Below are positions 1 through 7,936 of a stretch of 7,936 nucleotides of DNA, in pieces (positions within the stretch are counted from its first letter, which is position 1; each line of letters begins with the position of its first letter). Location of the stretch: the IMG/VR virus record IMGVR_UViG_2654587792_000005, positions 1 through 7,936 of that record; one strand, written 5' to 3'. The notes beneath the pieces were generated by a model, which did not search any database, was not told where the DNA came from, and saw only the letters and a list, made by a program, of their open reading frames with translations. The DNA is from a virus. Taxonomy: Duplodnaviria > Heunggongvirae > Uroviricota > Caudoviricetes. A program made the translations under genes and the position numbers.

Positions 1-411
1 GCTATCCTCCAGCAGGGAGTGATGGCTAACGGCGATTTCTTTGATGAACGCCACGGCCTGGACTGGTTACAGAATTATGTGCAGACCAACCTCTATAACC
101 TGCTTTATACCAGCACCACGAAAGTTCCCCAGACTGAAGCCGGTATTACCCGACTGTTATCAAATGTTGAAAAATCACTGGATCAGGCCGTTCAGAATGG
201 ACTGATTGCTCCGGGCGTATGGAACGGGGGCGACCTTGGTCAGTTGTCATCAGGTGACACACTGCCCAAAGGTTATTACGTATACGCCCAGCCGCTGGAT
301 GAACAGGCACAATCAGAACGTGAAGCCCGTAAGGCTCCGGTGATTCAGGCTGCAATAAAACTTGCAGGCGCGGTTCATTACGCTGACGTACAGATTAACG
401 TTGTTCGCTAA
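1..411 (+). CDS. Contractile tail sheath protein, C-terminal part (5-prime end lies upstream of the window)
   Basis: The frame is open from nt 1 ([15 protein letters not shown]...), so the GTG at 19 and ATG at 22 are probably internal codons. Stop TAA 409-411. It lies immediately upstream of the tube, chaperone-with-frameshift and tape measure genes, the canonical sheath position. The call rests on synteny, not on a recognised catalytic motif. Confidence 0.55.
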
Positions 412-421
412 GGGGAAGTGA

Positions 422-862
422 ATGTCTACCTATTCTTTTATGGATGTCACTGCGACGCTGACCGGCCCGACCGGTTCGATTGACCTCGGGTACGGTTCTG
501 CAAGTTCTGAAGAGGGGATTGTGGTTGCGATGGGCGGTCCTAAAAACACCATGACCATCGGTGCTGATGGTGAAGTGATGCACAGCCTCCATGCAGATAA
601 AAGCGGGACGATTACCGTTAACCTTCTGAAGACATCACCGACAAATAAAAAATTGTCGCTGGCGTATAACGCACAGAGCCAGTCTTCTGCCACATGGGGG
701 AATAACGTTATCGTGATCCGCAACAAGGTCAGCGGCGACATCATCACGGCACGCAGTGTTGCGTTCCAGAAACAACCGGATAATGCCAACGCTAAAACCG
801 GTAATACGATGCCGTGGGTGTTTGACTGCGGCAAGATTGACCAGGTTCTCGGGGAGTTTTAA
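422..862 (+). CDS. Tail tube protein (146 aa)
   Basis: ATG 422 follows a purine-rich RBS (AGGGGAAG, 411-418) and the sheath stop by 10 nt. Size and position directly upstream of the chaperone gene are typical of a myovirus tube protein. Stop TAA 860-862. Confidence 0.6.
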   Translation: MSTYSFMDVTATLTGPTGSIDLGYGSASSEEGIVVAMGGPKNTMTIGADGEVMHSLHADKSGTITVNLLKTSPTNKKLSLAYNAQSQSSATWGNNVIVIRNKVSGDIITARSVAFQKQPDNANAKTGNTMPWVFDCGKIDQVLGEF

Positions 863-865
863 TAC

Positions 866-1321
866 ATGGAATTCGAAATCAAAGGCGTGAAATATCGCGT
901 GGCAAAACTCAGCGTTTTTGACCAGCTGAAAGTGACCCGCAAACTTCTGCCGGTGGTACTGGCGGGAATGATGTCAGATTTCGGGAGCATTCGCTCCCGT
1001 TTGCCTGCTGACGGCAAAATCGACACCGTGAAATTCGAGCAGTTAAAACCGGTGTTTGAAACCATGCTCCCGCGTATCGCTGAGGAACTGTCTTCCCTGA
1101 CCGAAGATGACACCGATGCGATTATTCATCCCTGTCTTGCGGTGGTATCGCGGCGTCATATGGACGGATGGGTGCCGGTATTTACCCAGGGCGAACTGAT
1201 GTTTGATGATATTGACCTGCTGGTCATGCTGCAGCTGGTGGCGCGGGTGGTCGCCGATTCGCTGGGAAATTTTTTGCCTACACCCCTTACCAGCACGACG
1301 CAGAGCCTGCAACAGGGCTGA
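866..1321 (+). CDS. Tail assembly chaperone, short in-frame product (151 aa; gpG / P2 gpE analogue)
   Basis: ATG 866 has GGGGAG (851-856) 9 nt upstream. It is a small protein directly upstream of the tape measure gene and carries a slippery site near its 3-prime end. Stop TGA 1319-1321. Confidence 0.7.
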   Translation: MEFEIKGVKYRVAKLSVFDQLKVTRKLLPVVLAGMMSDFGSIRSRLPADGKIDTVKFEQLKPVFETMLPRIAEELSSLTEDDTDAIIHPCLAVVSRRHMDGWVPVFTQGELMFDDIDLLVMLQLVARVVADSLGNFLPTPLTSTTQSLQQG

Positions 1322-1518
1322 CGTTTAACAGCCTGCCGGACGGGCTGTCCTACCTTCTCAATCCGGTTGACGCCGGGTTAATTCCTTATACAGCACTTAA
1401 AGATGGCTCTGTCGATTTGTACGACATTGCTCTCTTGAATGACCATCTGGCGGTAAAAGCGGATAACCAGCGGCGCATTGAGAAATGGAGAGAGGATAAT
1501 GAACGCCGAGACTATTAA
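866..1518 (+). CDS. Tail assembly chaperone, -1 frameshift fusion product (about 217 aa; gpGT / P2 gpE+E-prime analogue)
   Basis: After the slippery run at 1264-1276 the -1 frame has no stop for 82 codons (FFAYTPYQHDAEPATGLTFNSLPDGLSYLLNPVDAGLIPYTALKDGSVDLYDIALLNDHLAVKADNQRRIEKWREDNERRDY), ending at TAA 1516-1518, 17 nt past the tape measure ATG. I translated this by hand; the extension has no start codon, so the ORF track cannot show it. Confidence 0.6.
1264..1276 (+). other. Programmed -1 ribosomal frameshift slippery site (GGGAAAT overlapping TTTTTTG)
   Basis: Sequence GGGAAATTTTTTG. In the chaperone frame the codons are GGA AAT TTT TTG, so both G_GGA_AAT (1264-1270) and T_TTT_TTG (1270-1276) fit the X_XXY_YYZ heptamer rule. 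Phage lambda G/GT uses the closely related G_GGA_AAG. Confidence 0.55.
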
Positions 1519-3487
1519 AGATTTCCTCGTCTCGCTTGGCTTCAGTGTGGATGATGCAGGAGCGAAAAAATTCGGTTCTGTCCTCGCCGGTACAACTGCA
1601 AATGTCATCAAAATGGGGCTGGCCGTCGAAGGAGCGGCGCTGTCCGTGGTGGCCTTCACGGCTAAGATCGCCTCCGGCCTGGATAATCTTTACTGGGCGT
1701 CACAGCGCACCGGCGCGACAGTCCAGGGAATTCAGTCTATTGGCTATGCGGTTTCGCAGGTTGGCGGCAGCGTGGACGCTGCGCGATCTTCTCTGGAAAA
1801 CCTCTCCCGGTTTATTCGTAATAATCCCGGGGCGGAGGGATTTCTGAATCGTCTGGGGGTACAGACACGGGATGCCAGCGGTAACATGCGTGACATGGCC
1901 GCTATTTTTACAGGGGTAGGCCAGAAGCTCAGCGACATGCCGTATTACCGTGCTAACCAGTATGCGCAGATGCTGGGCATTGACGAAAATACCCTGTTGG
2001 CTATGCGTCGCGGTGTGGGTGGCTTCTCCGGGCAGTACAGCGCAATGGCGAAAGCTATCGGCTTCAATGCTGACGAGGCGGCCAGAAGCTCCAACAAATT
2101 TATGACCTCCCTGCGTGAGTTTGGCGCGATGGCAGGCATGGCCCGTGACAAAATCGGCTCTAATCTTGCGGGTGGGCTTGCGGGTTCGCTGGACACACTG
2201 CGCCGCCATATCCTGGACAACTTCCCGCGTATCGAGCAGACCCTGACGAAAGCCATAAAAGGCATTCTGGCGCTCGGGGATATTATCGGGCGGCTGTTCT
2301 TCAGACTGATTGAGGGGACATCAGGCCTCATCACCTGGTGGCAATCGCTGGATAAGCAAACGCGGGAGTTGATCTCGCTGTTTGGCGCACTGACGATTGC
2401 GCTGCGCATTCTGAACAGTACGTTCTGGATGTCGCCGATTGGCCTCATTACCGCGCTGGCGGCGGGGATTGCCCTCCTGTGGGAGGACTATCAGACCTGG
2501 AAGGAAGGCGGCGACAGCCTGATTGACTGGGGCAAGTGGAAACCGGAGGTTGATGCCGCGCTGAAGATGGTTCGTGACCTTAAAACGACCGTTAACGACC
2601 TGGTGAAAGCGCTGGCGAAACTGCTCAATATTGACCCCAAATCATGGTCCCTGAAGTGGGATTTCAGCAACTTCATCGACCAGATGGGCGAATTCAGCAA
2701 AATGCTGAACATGATCGCCGACCTGCTCAACGCTATCAAAGATGGCCGCTGGGCTGATGCCGTCAGCATCGGCAAACAGATACTTAATCAGGGCAGCGAA
2801 AATCCGTCAGCGATGCCGATGGTTACAGACAGCGCTAACAGTACTGCCGACTGGATTAAAGAGCACTGGGGATTTGATCCCCGCAGTGTGGGCCGGACGG
2901 TACGCGGCTGGTTTGGTGATGATGAGCCGGAACAACATGCACAGGCTACGAAACGAGGAGAACGGAATAACAATCCGGGAAACCTTAATTTTGCTGGTCA
3001 GGCAGGGGCTTCTCTTGAACGCCCGGGCGGGCGATTTGCCAGATTTGAAACTGCCTTTGATGGATTACGGGCTCTTGCTCGTCAGTTAATGCTGTACGCC
3101 GGACGGGGAATAAACAGTGTGGAGAAAATTATCTCTACCTGGGCACCTGCGTCTGATAATAACAACACAACCGCGTATATCAGGGCTGTATCGCAACGAC
3201 TGGGAGTGGATCCCCGGGCTGCCCTGAATATGAGCGATCCGCAAACCATGTCAGCATTGATGAGCAGCATTATCCAGCATGAGAATGGAAGAAATATCTA
3301 TTCTCGGGAGCTGATTAATAAGGCTGCCGTGGCGGGAATTAGTGGCAAAGTGACAGAGGTTAACCAGCAAAATACCTACCACATTTACGGTGGCGGAGAT
3401 CCGCACGCTGTCGGTAATGAGGTTGCACGTCGGCAACAGTCTGCAAATGCTCAGGTCATGCGAAGTAATCAGGTGAGGGTGGGTTAG
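1499..3487 (+). CDS. Tail tape measure protein (663 aa from ATG 1499; the ORF track begins at in-frame TTG 1478)
   Basis: Longest gene in the window, immediately after the chaperone/frameshift gene. ATG 1499 is preceded by GGAGAGAGG (1487-1495). The N-terminal half is Ala/Gly-rich. There is a long hydrophobic segment (LISLFGALTIALRILNSTFWMSPIGLITALAAGIALLW) and a distinct C-terminal module (NNNPGNLNF...IIQHENG). Stop TAG 3485-3487. Confidence 0.8.
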   Translation: MNAETIKDFLVSLGFSVDDAGAKKFGSVLAGTTANVIKMGLAVEGAALSVVAFTAKIASGLDNLYWASQRTGATVQGIQSIGYAVSQVGGSVDAARSSLENLSRFIRNNPGAEGFLNRLGVQTRDASGNMRDMAAIFTGVGQKLSDMPYYRANQYAQMLGIDENTLLAMRRGVGGFSGQYSAMAKAIGFNADEAARSSNKFMTSLREFGAMAGMARDKIGSNLAGGLAGSLDTLRRHILDNFPRIEQTLTKAIKGILALGDIIGRLFFRLIEGTSGLITWWQSLDKQTRELISLFGALTIALRILNSTFWMSPIGLITALAAGIALLWEDYQTWKEGGDSLIDWGKWKPEVDAALKMVRDLKTTVNDLVKALAKLLNIDPKSWSLKWDFSNFIDQMGEFSKMLNMIADLLNAIKDGRWADAVSIGKQILNQGSENPSAMPMVTDSANSTADWIKEHWGFDPRSVGRTVRGWFGDDEPEQHAQATKRGERNNNPGNLNFAGQAGASLERPGGRFARFETAFDGLRALARQLMLYAGRGINSVEKIISTWAPASDNNNTTAYIRAVSQRLGVDPRAALNMSDPQTMSALMSSIIQHENGRNIYSRELINKAAVAGISGKVTEVNQQNTYHIYGGGDPHAVGNEVARRQQSANAQVMRSNQVRVG

Positions 3488-4074
3488 TGGATATTCTCTC
3501 TACACTTTTTCATCAGCAGAGCAGAAAAATAGGAATGATTGTTCCCAGTGTTGTTATTTCAGAGAAGCATACAGATATGCTTGAAATAACAGAGCATCCG
3601 GTAGAGGTTGGGGCCGCTGTCGCTGATCATGCCTATAAAAAACCGTCAGAAGTGGTGATGGAGGTTGGTTTCGCCGGTGGCGGCGCATTGCTGGATTTTG
3701 CCAGTAATCTGACGGCTACCAGCCTGCTCGGCCTGAGTCCTCAGCAGACGTATCAGGAGCTACTGGATCTGCAGGAAAGCCGTATCCCCTTCGATGTGGT
3801 AACCGGTAAACGACTGTACAGCAACATGTTGATCCGGGCGCTGGAAGTGACGACGGACAAGACAACCGAAAACGTCCTGTCCGCCGTCCTCACCCTGAGG
3901 GAGGTCCTTATCTCCCGGACACAGCAGATTACCGTCGCGGATAAAACCAACATGAAGGAAGGGGCCAGCACGTCGGCGGTACAGAATAGCGGCAACAAAA
4001 CCACAAAGCCTCCAGATACTTCACTGCTGAAAAGCATCACGGGTAACGTGGCGTCATTACTGGGGGGCGGCTAA
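3487..4074 (+). CDS. Tail or baseplate-proximal protein of unknown function (195 aa)
   Basis: GTG start overlaps the tape measure stop (TAGTG, 3485-3489), indicating translational coupling. GC is like the rest of the tail module. No motif I can name. Confidence 0.5.
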   Translation: MDILSTLFHQQSRKIGMIVPSVVISEKHTDMLEITEHPVEVGAAVADHAYKKPSEVVMEVGFAGGGALLDFASNLTATSLLGLSPQQTYQELLDLQESRIPFDVVTGKRLYSNMLIRALEVTTDKTTENVLSAVLTLREVLISRTQQITVADKTNMKEGASTSAVQNSGNKTTKPPDTSLLKSITGNVASLLGGG

Positions 4075-4376
4075 TGACAATTCAGGAAATTCCGCTGACA
4101 GCGGACAACCAGCAGTTCAGCATCGTCCTAGGTGGTGTCACCTGGCGGATTAGCATCATATGGCGCGATCTGTACTGGATTATGGACCTGCAGAACGACA
4201 GAGGGGAGCCGGTAATCTCCGGTATTCCTCTCGTCACTGGTGCCGACCTGCTGGCGCAGTACGCCTGTATGGGACTTGGTTTTAAGCTGTTGGTGGTCTG
4301 CGATGACAACACACAGGATTATCCCACGAAAACTGACCTGGGCGGGCGCAGTCATTTACTGGTATCAACGGAGTAA
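4074..4376 (+). CDS. Small tail/baseplate protein of unknown function (100 aa)
   Basis: ATG overlaps the preceding stop (TAATG, 4072-4076) with a G-rich stretch upstream. It sits between the tape measure-proximal gene and the hub-like gene. Function is not recognisable from sequence. Confidence 0.45.
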   Translation: MTIQEIPLTADNQQFSIVLGGVTWRISIIWRDLYWIMDLQNDRGEPVISGIPLVTGADLLAQYACMGLGFKLLVVCDDNTQDYPTKTDLGGRSHLLVSTE

Positions 4377-4378
4377 GC

Positions 4379-5443
4379 ATGACACAGAACTGGATGAGAC
4401 ATTTCGAGCTGCAGCTTGTGGACGGGAACGGTCAGGGAATTGAGCTAAGTGATTTTAAAGTCACCTTTACGATCGACTGGTTCAACATCAGCAGCGCGTC
4501 CCGGGTAGGGACTATCAAAATTTATAACCTCTCGGCAGATACTGTGAACCGAATTACCGGGCAGGAGTTTTCGAAAGTGCGTCTGATTGCGGGTTACGAC
4601 GGTATCGCGCCGGAGGTGTCGGCAAGCGATGTCGGGACCGTGCGGGAGGTTGATGCGGCGGACGTGGGCCAGAGTGATGGCCGCAACTACGGACTGATTT
4701 TCAGCGGTGAAATTCGCTACTCGGTCACAGGAAAAGACAGCCCGGTTGATTCCTACGTCCTGATTCAGGCAGCAGATACTGATCTGGCTTTTGCCACCAG
4801 TATAACCTCACAGACGCTGGCTGCCGGTTACACGGTCGCTGATGTAAACCGTGCGCTGATGAAAGACTTCGAAGCCAAAGGCGCGACCGAAGGCCTGACG
4901 CCTGAAATGCCTGCTACTGTATTCCCCCGGGGGCGGGTACTCTTTGGCATGACGCGGCATCTAATGGATAACGTAGCCGGACAATGTGGCGCAACATGGC
5001 AATTCGTGGACGGTCAGCGCCAGATGGTGGCGAATAACGAATATGTTCACGAAGCGATTGTGCTCAACAGCGCTACCGGGCTTATTGGAATGCCGCAGCA
5101 GACTATCGGTAACGGCGTAAACGTCCGCGCGCTTATTAATCCGAACATCCGGGTTAACGGGCTCATTCAGCTGGATCAGGCTTCCGTCTATCGTACCGCG
5201 TTGTCGAACAACGATATTGCGATGGCTGGTGGTCAGATCACCGACCAGAACACGGACGGAAATATTACGCTAAGCGGCACCACATCGCAGCCTGCCAGCA
5301 TCGCAACGGATGGCGTTTATATTGTTCGCGGGATTATGTACACTGGCGACACAAGGGGCCAGGCGTGGTACATGGATATGATGTGCGAAGCGCGTGGGGC
5401 TAGCGATATACCTAGCCAGTTGGCAATGCAACGGGGAGCGTAA
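4379..5443 (+). CDS. Baseplate hub-like protein (354 aa; assigned by size and synteny)
   Basis: ATG 4379 lies 2 nt after the previous stop, with ACGGAG upstream. A roughly 350-aa protein between the tape measure and spike genes is where gp27/gpD-type hub proteins sit in contractile tails. I did not recognise a specific motif. Stop TAA 5441-5443. Confidence 0.45.
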   Translation: MTQNWMRHFELQLVDGNGQGIELSDFKVTFTIDWFNISSASRVGTIKIYNLSADTVNRITGQEFSKVRLIAGYDGIAPEVSASDVGTVREVDAADVGQSDGRNYGLIFSGEIRYSVTGKDSPVDSYVLIQAADTDLAFATSITSQTLAAGYTVADVNRALMKDFEAKGATEGLTPEMPATVFPRGRVLFGMTRHLMDNVAGQCGATWQFVDGQRQMVANNEYVHEAIVLNSATGLIGMPQQTIGNGVNVRALINPNIRVNGLIQLDQASVYRTALSNNDIAMAGGQITDQNTDGNITLSGTTSQPASIATDGVYIVRGIMYTGDTRGQAWYMDMMCEARGASDIPSQLAMQRGA

Positions 5444-5445
5444 GC

Positions 5446-5907
5446 GTGAAAAAACAGGTGATAGTTGCAATAACGATGCTGATTTCTACGACTTCTTTTG
5501 CCGAACCAGGTAAGTTTGAATTTAAAGCAGCCGACCTGATGGAGCAGCAAAAGTTTACGGAATGGCAACATTACGCATCTGTGAAGCCTTTTTTCTCAAT
5601 GAATGGGCGACGTTTTACAATGACCTTAGATGATTTCGCTGACATCATCAGGAACACATTCCAGCAATGTAATGATTTGGACGCATACACCAACCGCAAA
5701 GGAACCCGGGATTCTTGTCAGGAATATATTTACAACGGTATGAAAGAGTGGATAAAACTGTCAAAGGATCCTAGTGTTAGTCCGCAAGCATGGAAAATTG
5801 GTGCTAGATATGCTTTCAACACAAATAATCCTGTCCCCGGTAGTAATGTGATTGATTTTAATGGTTGGGCTGGTGGTATTCGTGTTGCAAAATCAAAAGG
5901 GTTCTAA
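5446..5907 (+). CDS. Secreted or periplasmic protein of unknown function with N-terminal signal peptide (153 aa); accessory (moron) gene
   Basis: GTG 5446 has GGGGAG (5433-5438) 7 nt upstream and lies 2 nt after the hub stop. The N-terminus MKKQVIVAITMLISTTSFA-EP has two lysines, a hydrophobic core and a probable SFA cleavage site. The mature part has two Cys (QQCNDLD, DSCQEY). Hand-counted GC is about 38% at 5461-5520, versus about 58% at 2401-2460 in the tape measure gene. Confidence 0.6.
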   Translation: MKKQVIVAITMLISTTSFAEPGKFEFKAADLMEQQKFTEWQHYASVKPFFSMNGRRFTMTLDDFADIIRNTFQQCNDLDAYTNRKGTRDSCQEYIYNGMKEWIKLSKDPSVSPQAWKIGARYAFNTNNPVPGSNVIDFNGWAGGIRVAKSKGF

Positions 5908-6022
5908 TGGCACTAGAGTAGAAAATCCTCGATTTTTCAGGGAAATGGGCTCGTAGTAAAATCTAGAGATTCATTTTCTAAGGGGGATTTTGTGCGAAAC
6001 TACTAAGTAGACCAGATGTGGA

Positions 6023-6052
6023 TTGACTAAACTGTATACGCGAACATAAAAT
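6023..6052 (+). promoter_or_regulatory. Candidate sigma70-type promoter for the two-gene operon
   Basis: TTGACT (6023-6028), an 18-nt spacer, then TAAAAT (6047-6052), in the AT-rich 173-bp intergenic region about 30 nt upstream of GTG 6081. Sequence match only. Confidence 0.4.
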
Positions 6053-6080
6053 CTGACAAAAAATAAGTAGTGAGTGAACT

Positions 6081-6851
6081 GTGGCGAGACCAAAACTAAA
6101 AGCCGAAGAGCGTTTTGACCAGTTGATTAATGTAATCAACAGTGGGGAGCCACTTGATATGTGGACTTTCCGAGAAGTGGTTTCGGAGTATGGTTCTAAT
6201 CATACTCCTATGGCTGAAGCACTTGTAGCGTTGGCTTATATAGCTAAGGGTGAGGTGCTCTTTGGGATTGAGTCGCTTGAGGTCATCCTTCCACATGCTG
6301 ACGTTAATTTCGCACGGATCTTTTGTAAACTTCTCGAGCGATTTTCTCTACTCGAAAAACTGGATTACTACATATATTCTTTAGCTGATAAGTTTCCTAC
6401 AAAGTGGTTTACTTACAAAGCTGGCGGCGTTGCGTACTTGGTAGGGAAACTATCGAAATGCGTGGAGTATTTAGGGCGTCATTGCAAAATGTTATCCGAA
6501 GAAGAGCATAGGGATGACGCAGAAACCTTCTTGCAGGAGGTAATTAACGATATGGATGAAGCTTATAAAAATTCAGGGTGCTCTTCAGAGCAATATAGGC
6601 AAGTTGCCTTGGCTGTGCACAGAGTTATGGCTGAATTCCCGTCAACTGAATATCGCGCGGACATTAACGGGGCGTCTGGTGGAACGTATTTGGTTGAGGT
6701 GGTTAAGGCGTCTCCAGAGCGGGTTGTTGCAATGAATATGCGACTTGCTGATGAAATCTGCTCGATCGATTTGCTTGATGATTGTAACCTGATAGCAAGA
6801 TTTTCCGTTGAAAGAAATGGATTAAAAGAGTGTAAATATGCCTATAACTAG
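6081..6851 (+). CDS. Hypothetical protein, first gene of accessory two-gene operon (256 aa from GTG 6081, or 230 aa from ATG 6159); putative HEPN-like partner or effector
   Basis: Low-GC ORF (about 42% by hand count at 6081-6140). GTG 6081 has a weak RBS, whereas the in-frame ATG at 6159 has GGGGAG (6144-6149) 9 nt upstream, so the true start is uncertain. The C-terminal half contains YRQVALAVH (R173-x6-H180, nt 6597-6620), preceded by the acidic helix DAETFLQEVINDMDEAYKN. The stop TAG 6849-6851 overlaps the next gene by 14 nt. Confidence 0.55.
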   Translation: MARPKLKAEERFDQLINVINSGEPLDMWTFREVVSEYGSNHTPMAEALVALAYIAKGEVLFGIESLEVILPHADVNFARIFCKLLERFSLLEKLDYYIYSLADKFPTKWFTYKAGGVAYLVGKLSKCVEYLGRHCKMLSEEEHRDDAETFLQEVINDMDEAYKNSGCSSEQYRQVALAVHRVMAEFPSTEYRADINGASGGTYLVEVVKASPERVVAMNMRLADEICSIDLLDDCNLIARFSVERNGLKECKYAYN

Positions 6852-7233
6852 TTCTGAGTTTTTGTCTTCGGCCGAACGTTGTTTTGCTGAAGATTGTGAG
6901 ATTGGTTATCGTAATGCTATTTCACGAGCATATTACGCTCTCTACCATGAAATTAAAGATAATCTAACTAGTCTTCCTGCTTATACTCGGGATCATCATG
7001 CCAGCCTTATCTCTTATCTTAAAAATAAGGGAGAAAATAAACTGGAACCCTATGATCCTCGAAGTCTAAAATCTATGGCTTACAAACTTGAGCAACAGAG
7101 GTTAGCTCGGAATGAGGCTGATTATGATTTAAGTAGTTGTGGCATAAATAAAGCAATGGCACAACAATCAATCTTGGAAGTAAAAACAATTTTTTCTCAA
7201 TGGGAACAAATGAAGACTGATGTAGCCGTTTAG
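6838..7233 (+). CDS. Small HEPN-like protein, second gene of accessory two-gene operon (131 aa)
   Basis: ATG 6838 with AAGAG 8 nt upstream, overlapping the upstream gene. The helix SAERCFAEDCEIGYRNAISRAYYALYHEIKD carries R30-x6-H37 (nt 6925-6948). A second His pair follows (DHHASLISYL), then a C-terminal helix QQRLARNEADYD. From memory this resembles canonical HEPN-domain proteins; the domain call is unverified. Stop TAG 7231-7233. Confidence 0.5.
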   Translation: MPITSSEFLSSAERCFAEDCEIGYRNAISRAYYALYHEIKDNLTSLPAYTRDHHASLISYLKNKGENKLEPYDPRSLKSMAYKLEQQRLARNEADYDLSSCGINKAMAQQSILEVKTIFSQWEQMKTDVAV

Positions 7234-7252
7234 GTCTAACTGATTTATTAAT

Positions 7253-7280
7253 AAAAACCCGCCACTTGGCGGGTTTTTTG
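7253..7280 (+). terminator. Rho-independent terminator (A-tract, GC stem-loop, T-tract; potentially bidirectional)
   Basis: AAAAA-CCCGCC-ACTT-GGCGGG-TTTTTTG: a perfect 6-bp all-GC stem (7258-7263 with 7268-7273), a 4-nt loop, then six T. It lies 20 nt after the HEPN-like gene stop; the flanking A-tract would allow function on the opposite strand too. Confidence 0.8.
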
Positions 7281-7298
7281 CTTTCTGGAGCCTACTAA

Positions 7299-7936
7299 AT
7301 GGCAGTATCTGACCAGACCCGCAGCGGCGACCTTGCCGAAACATTCAAATCTGAACGGGAAACAACAAAGAACCAGATCCGTGTCGCCTTGCCTGGCATT
7401 ATTCAGTCATTCGATCCTGATGCGGTGACGGCAGTTGTGCAGCCTGCTATCCGTTCGGTTGAAAAGGATAATGACGGCAACCGCATTACCCAAAATTACC
7501 CATTGCTGGTGGATGTGCCAGTGGTATTCCCGCGTGGCGGAGGCTGTACGCTAACGTTTCCAGTTAAAGCCGGTGATGAATGTTTGGTGATTTTTGCCGA
7601 TCGTTGTATTGATTTCTGGTGGCAGAGTGGCGGGATACAGGAGCCGGTCGATGACAGAATGCATGATTTATCGGATGCGTTTTGTATTGTCGGTCCCCAG
7701 TCGCAGGCAAGGAAGATTAGCGGTATTAATACCAGTGCCACACAGTTGCGTAGTGATGACGGCAGCACCTATTTTGAGCTTAATCCTGATACCAGGAAAA
7801 TTAAAATTGTCGCTCCGGGGGGCCTTGATGTGGTTGCCCCTCTGGCTGATTTTTCTGAGAAAGTAACCATTCATGGCCTGTTAACCTGGATGGGAGGCAT
7901 GGTGGGGTCTGTTGTTTCTGGTGTGGCTTCAAAAAT
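7299..7936 (+). CDS. Baseplate central spike-like protein (gpV / gp138-like), N-terminal part; 3-prime end beyond window
   Basis: ATG 7299 has GGAG (7287-7290) 8 nt upstream. The frame has no stop over 212 codons to the window end (hand translation: MAVSDQTRSGDLAETFKSERETTKNQIRVALPGIIQSFDPDAVTAVVQPAI...LVDVPVVFPRGGGCTLTFPVKAGDECLVIFADRCIDFWWQSGG...). The ORF track omits it because it has no stop. GC returns to the tail-module level. The spike call rests on position after the hub gene and on a remembered N-terminal pattern, so it is tentative. Confidence 0.5.
   Translation, partial: MAVSDQTRSGDLAETFKSERETTKNQIRVALPGIIQSFDPDAVTAVVQPAIRSVEKDNDGNRITQNYPLLVDVPVVFPRGGGCTLTFPVKAGDECLVIFADRCIDFWWQSGGIQEPVDDRMHDLSDAFCIVGPQSQARKISGINTSATQLRSDDGSTYFELNPDTRKIKIVAPGGLDVVAPLADFSEKVTIHGLLTWMGGMVGSVVSGVASK

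Follow-up and report, generated by a model that had tools for sequence, protein, structure and literature searches.

A TPR-containing, MNT-like protein as the predicted partner of a small HEPN protein in a mobile two-gene cassette of prophages

The window analysed here, the 7,936 nucleotides (nt) of virus record IMGVR_UViG_2654587792_000005 (positions 1 to 7,936), is part of a prophage tail and baseplate cluster of Escherichia coli and is 100% identical to strain APEC-O117H42. Within it, a gene encoding a 256-residue protein (6081-6851, + strand, GTG start, stop codon TAG at 6849-6851) overlaps a gene encoding a 131-residue HEPN protein, the presumed effector (6838-7233, + strand). The reading that we favour, with a probability of roughly 0.55, is that the 256-residue protein is the cognate non-enzymatic partner of the HEPN protein, acting as an antitoxin-like neutraliser and probably as a sensor or scaffold, and that the two genes together form a mobile cargo cassette of prophages. 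The pair is a candidate new toxin-antitoxin or anti-phage module, best supported as an antitoxin-first module that is derived from, or convergent with, HEPN-MNT pairs. A HEPN two-gene module whose partner combines predicted TPR and pseudo-MNT parts is unannotated: all family members seen in databases bear the name 'hypothetical protein' and have no Pfam model. A literature search by RefSeq accession and for prophage systems with HEPN and TPR proteins, with most subscription-journal papers outside its scope, found no description of the pair, and the four RefSeq accessions were not found in the parts of the DefensePredictor supplements that were searched.

The original prediction, made from the letters of the window, had called the 256-residue protein the partner of the downstream 131-residue protein, and this is borne out by a comparison of ten loci (the window, E2348/69, Yersinia and metagenomes) whose partner proteins are 20-88% identical to that of the window. 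In all ten, the partner gene overlaps a gene for a homologous HEPN protein of 123-136 residues by 4-29 nt, and the pairwise divergences of the two proteins are closely correlated (r = 0.95). In all 45 pairwise comparisons the HEPN protein has diverged less than its partner. An exhaustive search with a hidden Markov model (HMM) across 1.84 billion representative proteins (E <= 0.001) returned a small partner family of 56 representative clusters, with proteins of typically about 250-260 residues; one member is encoded by E2348/69, the reference strain of enteropathogenic E. coli. As most clusters (44/56) are 248-286 residues long, the family has a single architecture. An alignment of 46 members contains not one invariant column. 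An upstream gene that keeps no invariant residue and always evolves faster than its neighbour shows the pattern of an antitoxin or a sensor. Together with the lack of a conserved polar site, a weak translation start and coupling to a more conserved effector, this fast evolution fits a pair made up of an antitoxin or sensor and its effector.

Sequence searches said little about the function of the partner. The 256-residue protein has no match in Pfam, NCBIfam or PADLOC; in PHROGs it matches phrog_17809 (E 1.3e-49), a family of unknown function, and searches of PDB sequences with the single protein and with profiles returned just designed or TPR repeat proteins and noise. An AlphaFold2 model built with ten homologues was more informative (predicted local distance difference test score, pLDDT, 89.3; predicted template modelling score, pTM, 0.85). 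In this model residues 8-185 are helical, with paired helices of 11-14 residues, and in residues 191-243 two strands are followed by a helix, then a short helix, and finally a third strand. The tandem helix-turn-helix repeats of the N-terminal part form an array of the TPR type, which spans approximately residues 27-137 (6159-6491, + strand). The Pfam TPR models do not match the window protein itself, and one of them, TPR_2, is matched by 11 of 46 relatives (best E 5.9e-6). The original prediction had guessed that the first 140 residues could be a sensor or regulatory domain and had added that they match nothing nameable. The guess is plausible for a modelled TPR-like, protein-binding array.

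The C-terminal part (6510-6809, + strand) is predicted to be an alpha/beta domain with MNT-like, that is pol-beta nucleotidyltransferase-like, topology. Two helices lead into an antiparallel beta hairpin whose Gly-rich loop reads GASGG (residues 197-201), and a helix and a third strand complete the domain, in agreement with the topology described for MNTs. The best match of the domain in the PDB is the MNT of a HEPN-MNT complex. A Foldseek search of the PDB with the full-length model gave nothing at E <= 0.001; the weak matches were to TPR proteins and to C-terminal domains of cation-diffusion-facilitator (CDF) transporters. In the sequences of the 256-residue family no nucleotidyltransferase or MNT signal was detected. 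The GSX10DXD motif is absent from the partner, as the window protein reads G197-A-S-G-G-T-Y-L-V-E206-V-V at this point, with no DXD, and the family varies at these positions. Because the catalytic Gly-Ser and Asp-x-Asp motif is missing, the most fitting reading of the domain, given its modelled fold, is an MNT derivative that has lost catalysis. Five cysteines of the protein (C82, C127, C167, C227 and C235) are invariant among ten close homologues and could form a metal or redox site specific to this subfamily. A metal-binding site as a feature of the family was considered and rejected, the five residues being unconserved in the wider partner family.

The 131-residue protein fits the AF0298/UPF0332 type of HEPN protein in its sequence. 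Against the Pfam HEPN model PF05168 it scores 18.5 bits (E 0.0023), below the gathering cut-off of 22 bits, and its homologues reach 19.4-20.5 bits; nine members of the HEPN family have precomputed PF05168 matches, and several relatives are labelled UPF0332 or 'HEPN domain-containing'. The family profile finds 9xbd/9xbc and AF0298 (2hsb) in the PDB at E ~0.01, aligning SRAYYA..H and R-N-x-S/A-D-Y, and in PADLOC-DB v2 the protein has only a weak match to HEPN_IX (E 0.003). Anantharaman et al. (2013) describe an AF0298-type group in which another residue stands in for the His of Rx4-6H; a different His, N-terminal to the motif, is kept throughout the group and has been proposed to complete an active site (PMC3710099). 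The same arrangement is seen here: R91 is invariant, D95-Y96 stand in place of the His in the motif region R91-N-E-A-D95-Y96, none of seven homologues has a His there, and H37 and H54 are invariant further towards the N-terminus. The full invariant set comprises R25, S29, R30, Y32, Y33, Y36, H37, P47, H54, R91, A94, D95 and Y96, with R30-H37 encoded at 6925-6948 and R91, D95 and Y96 within 7108-7125. The RX4HXY motif of type VII toxins is absent from the protein. The two PDB entries 9xbd and 9xbc, both deposited as 'HEPN domain-containing protein', differ by Tyr versus Phe in RNRSDY, at the equivalent of Y96, which suggests that the depositors regard this Tyr as functionally important; no paper on 9xbd was found in the literature.

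The layout of the cassette points to a self-contained expression unit in which the partner is made sparingly. A candidate sigma-70 promoter lies at 6023-6052 (+ strand; TTGACT, an 18-nt spacer and TAAAAT, agreeing with the consensus at 10 of 12 positions), and a -35 element TTGnnn and a -10 element (C/T)ATA(A/G)AAT are retained at an unchanged spacing in the homologous loci of E2348/69, Yersinia and the metagenomes; we infer from this that it serves as the promoter of the cassette. Downstream of it, at 6072-6074 (+ strand), GAG is a weak Shine-Dalgarno remnant 6 nt 5' of GTG 6081 and is invariant in six of six aligned upstream regions. The weak ribosome-binding site and the GTG look like conserved features that hold expression of the partner low. 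The 14-nt overlap of the partner and HEPN genes (6838-6851, + strand, ATGCCTATAACTAG) would imply translational coupling, and the C-terminal YAY of the partner is conserved because its codons overlap the HEPN gene. An intrinsic terminator follows at 7253-7278 (+ strand), a hairpin with perfectly complementary arms of 12 nt and then a T-run, 20 nt before the spike gene. As a strong terminator inside the tail cluster, it means that late transcription must pass through or re-initiate.

The start of the partner gene had been left ambiguous between GTG 6081, with a weak ribosome-binding site, and ATG 6159, with a good one. The description of the two sites is accurate (just GAG, 6 nt upstream, for the GTG; GGGGAG, 10 nt upstream, for the ATG), and the ambiguity itself is removed by the homologues. 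The reading frame is closed by a TGA at 6075, two codons 5' of GTG 6081, which excludes an earlier start. The N-terminus MARPKLKAEER is kept in homologues down to 56% identity, codons 2-11 differ solely by synonymous changes between the window and the closest loci, and a GTG start is present in seven of seven other aligned loci with an invariant GAG 6-7 nt upstream. Residue 27, which ATG 6159 encodes, is M, I, L, P, A, T or D among the homologues. Based on the upstream stop, the conserved N-terminus and GTG, and the variable residue 27, GTG 6081 is assigned from these alignments as the start; residues 8-21 are also modelled with confidence as a helix by AlphaFold2, and RefSeq lists a hypothetical protein with the identical coordinates 6081-6851.

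In the favoured reading, the weak GAG/GTG start would keep the partner at a low level, translation of the HEPN protein would be coupled to it through the overlap, and the terminator would end the unit. The MNT-like domain would bind the HEPN protein and, being without catalytic residues, would keep it inactive by sequestering it instead of AMPylating it. The TPR array would bind another protein ligand, which could be a trigger (a phage protein, for instance) or belong to the turnover machinery as a protease or adaptor. Once the partner is lost or displaced, the HEPN effector, probably an RNase, would be freed and arrest the cell, with addiction or abortive infection as the outcome. We infer physical binding, HEPN toxicity and RNase activity, the direction of regulation, sensing by the TPR array and an anti-phage effect from the features of the two genes and their models. 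A more specific version is less probable: a prophage-borne abortive-infection system that arose from a type VII HEPN-MNT module, in which the MNT lost catalysis and became a pure binding antitoxin and the acquired TPR sensor recognises a protein of an infecting phage, freeing an AF0298-type HEPN RNase with a non-canonical active site.

Several observations weigh against this favoured reading. The partner has no match in PADLOC-DB v2, and the HEPN protein, a putative RNase and toxin, scores below the Pfam threshold and is without RX4HXY. In addition, the nearest out-group HEPN genes (three loci) are not beside recognisable or Pfam MNT genes and therefore lend no independent support to descent from an MNT pair; one of these loci carries a distant 246-residue member of the partner family and two carry unrelated small partners.

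Compared with known systems, the pair is closest in layout to the type VII HEPN-MNT modules (HepT/MntA), such as those of Legionella pneumophila (PDB 8xeh), Shewanella (SO_3166/SO_3165) and HI0073/HI0074. [quoted passage not shown] The partner of the window differs, however, in having neither GSX10DXD nor conserved carboxylates, which makes AMPylation unlikely, in its additional TPR array, some 140 residues at the N-terminus, and in its size, approximately 2.5 times that of an MNT. It also has no detectable sequence similarity to MNTs, and its HEPN protein has R-x3-D-Y in place of RX4HXY. On the HEPN side, the closest relatives are the AF0298/UPF0332 proteins (the HEPN-T clade of Anantharaman et al. 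2013; PF05168; PDB 2hsb and 9xbd), with which the 131-residue protein shares the SRAYYA(L/M)(Y/F)H helix, R-N-x-(A/S)-D-Y, the replacement of the His of Rx4-6H and the retained N-terminal His, while differing in scoring below the Pfam threshold and in having a partner that is no canonical MNT. Among the TPR sensor or adaptor domains of bacterial immune proteins and other TPR scaffolds (MamA, PcrH, AimR and Avs-type C-terminal repeats), the array described here stands apart as it is short (some three repeats) and its fusion partner is an MNT-like domain instead of an NTPase, a helix-turn-helix (HTH) domain or an effector. RnlA/RnlB and LsoA/LsoB, with a HEPN toxin first and a small antitoxin second, are likewise HEPN two-gene modules on mobile elements, but here the HEPN protein is the product of the small downstream gene and the upstream protein is without HEPN features.

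This last comparison bears on the original prediction, which suggested that residues 146-182 are a divergent HEPN-like unit, additional to the downstream one, or its mimic, and considered a toxin-first pair like RnlA/RnlB. Its description of the gene was correct: a 256-residue open reading frame (ORF), residues 146-182 (DAETFLQEVINDMDEAYKNSGCSSEQYRQVALAVHRV) with R173 and H180, and M27 encoded by ATG 6159. The region (6516-6626, + strand; R173 at 6597-6599, H180 at 6618-6620) consists of two long helices that precede the C-terminal beta-sheet, and the helices 144-165 and 169-185 are present in both the full-length and the C-terminal model. Residues 146-185 are thus helices leading into the alpha/beta domain, and no HEPN bundle is predicted. 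The proposal drew just on the R173-x6-H180 spacing and on the order of a larger gene before a smaller one, and a single R-x6-H turns up by chance in 24% of shuffled versions of the 256-residue protein (any R-x4-6-H in 56%). Neither residue is conserved: in homologues of 48-88% identity R173 is R, M or K and H180 is H, S, G or D, and in the 46-member alignment the two columns hold K, E, R, Q and others, and H, F, I, L and others, respectively. Alignment of the 256-residue family with the HEPN family by hhalign gave a probability of 0.2%, and BLASTP between the two window proteins gave E = 39. With conservation, the shuffle test, hhalign and BLASTP all against it, a second HEPN unit is essentially excluded, and a toxin-first order falls with it, as the nuclease-type domain and the HEPN features reside in the small downstream gene.

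Alternatively, the partner could be an active, highly divergent AMPylating MNT, making the pair a true type VII system in which the invariant Tyr96, next to Arg91, would be the likely target and the TPR array an add-on. The predicted MNT-like fold of the C-terminal domain is in line with this, as are the Gly-rich GASGG loop between beta1 and beta2 in the window subfamily, the invariant Tyr in the R-x3-D-Y of the HEPN protein, and the related PDB HEPN structure in two forms with Tyr or Phe at the equivalent site (9xbd, 9xbc). In studied MNTs, however, GSX10DXD is required for AMPylation (PMC11586414), and here it is absent and the loop is too short. The single acidic residue, E206, is variable in the family (D/T/E/S/V and others), the family has no invariant residue, and its sequences give no nucleotidyltransferase signal, all of which makes an active enzyme improbable. 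A role without toxicity or defence deserves somewhat more weight, although we regard it as unlikely as well. Here the pair would be a regulatory or lysogenic-conversion cassette, with a non-catalytic HEPN protein that binds RNA or another ligand and a TPR protein as its adaptor or chaperone. HEPN domains without catalysis do exist (PMC3710099), the HEPN protein of the window has no canonical Rx4-6H, TPR proteins are generic adaptors, and PADLOC does not match the partner. The invariant polar HEPN set R25, R30, H37, H54, R91, D95 and Y96 is nevertheless of the kind proposed as an alternative active site of the AF0298 type, and toxin-antitoxin and defence cassettes typically show such a compact, overlapping and horizontally mobile arrangement of two genes in the cargo slots of prophages. 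Finally, the location of the gene within the tail cluster, between hub and spike, could point to a tail structural or assembly factor, such as a TPR protein that chaperones the baseplate or the spike. Such a role is very improbable, as the pair also occurs next to integrases, at the lysis-terminase junction and, for a distant relative, where no phage genes are recognisable; 10 genomes carry the pair versus 234 with the flanking spike gene; the slot of strain IAI1 holds other cargo; and the two genes have a lower GC content and their own promoter-like site and terminator.

The distribution of the pair is what marks it as an autonomous, horizontally mobile accessory cassette and not a tail component. 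It was found in at least five prophage cargo positions. These are the hub-spike slot in prophages of E. coli, Yersinia and metagenomes, the lysis-terminase junction of lambdoid prophages, the integrase-adjacent ends of P2/186-like and of lambdoid prophages, and, for a further pair, a position 5' of the tape-measure gene of Klebsiella phage ST405-OXA48phi1.3. The distant 246-residue relative of the partner lies in a locus without recognisable phage genes. Among 5426 complete E. coli genomes, only 10 carry this variant, as opposed to 234 with the flanking spike gene. The assignment as a mobile cassette rests on these several positions and genome counts, on the alternative cargo of IAI1, and on the promoter-like site and terminator.

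If the favoured reading is correct, the pair would show how an enzymatic (type VII) antitoxin can turn into a pseudo-enzyme that acts by sequestration while gaining a repeat-type sensor, and it would offer a concrete route from toxin-antitoxin modules to trigger-sensing immune systems. It would also give the AF0298/UPF0332 HEPN proteins, a poorly understood class without the canonical catalytic His, a partner whose function can be tested. In addition, an unannotated family would join the prophage cargo with a possible influence on phage resistance in Enterobacterales. The finding also marks the hub-spike junction of this prophage lineage as a cargo hotspot.

Among the relatives of the HEPN protein, Klebsiella phage MK416008.1 carries an intact homologue with 46% identity over 126 residues (comparison locus L024, 4252-4629). 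This gene appears to be mis-annotated, having been deposited as two short coding sequences at 4304-4435 and 4432-4647. The most distant HEPN relatives have a gene for a 152-residue protein upstream (locus L021, 2046-2914) or for a 160-residue protein downstream (locus L023, 2501-3393), and both of these proteins match nothing. A segment of the 152-residue protein, KILLDIKIKTDIDSLIQMDKEF, resembles by eye the Y..V...D...I..MN..LA of the partner family and is undetected by the family HMM.

The surroundings of the cassette in the window are a run of structural genes that comprises a tape-measure gene (1478-3487), a Dit-like baseplate gene (3487-4074), a plug gene (4074-4376), a hub gene (4379-5443) and a spike gene that starts at 7299. 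Between hub and spike this run is broken by three genes of low GC content (0.36-0.45, compared with 0.50-0.57 in the tail genes), whose products are 153, 256 and 131 residues long. The one for the 153-residue protein (5446-5907, + strand) directly follows the hub gene, is separate from the pair and encodes a signal-peptide-like N-terminus (MKKQVIVAITMLISTTSFA/EP). Its product has no family match in Pfam, NCBIfam, PADLOC or PHROGs. In the E2348/69 prophage a non-homologous gene for a 113-residue protein takes its place while the pair is kept, and strain IAI1 has a gene for a 117-residue signal-peptide protein at the same position. Since these two strains carry other genes there, the position looks like a second, independent site of variable cargo. 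The hub-spike slot of IAI1 (locus L003, 3286-3992) holds an unannotated ORF of 176 residues with hydrophobic, membrane-like segments and another of 59 residues, and these alternative contents likewise identify the hub-spike junction as a cargo hotspot.

No Rfam family was found in the window, and the terminator hairpin is the only repeat of note. An exact direct repeat of 13 nt (TTTTTTCTCAATG) occurs at 5589-5601, in the gene for the 153-residue protein, and at 7190-7202, near the end of the HEPN gene, and is probably due to chance.
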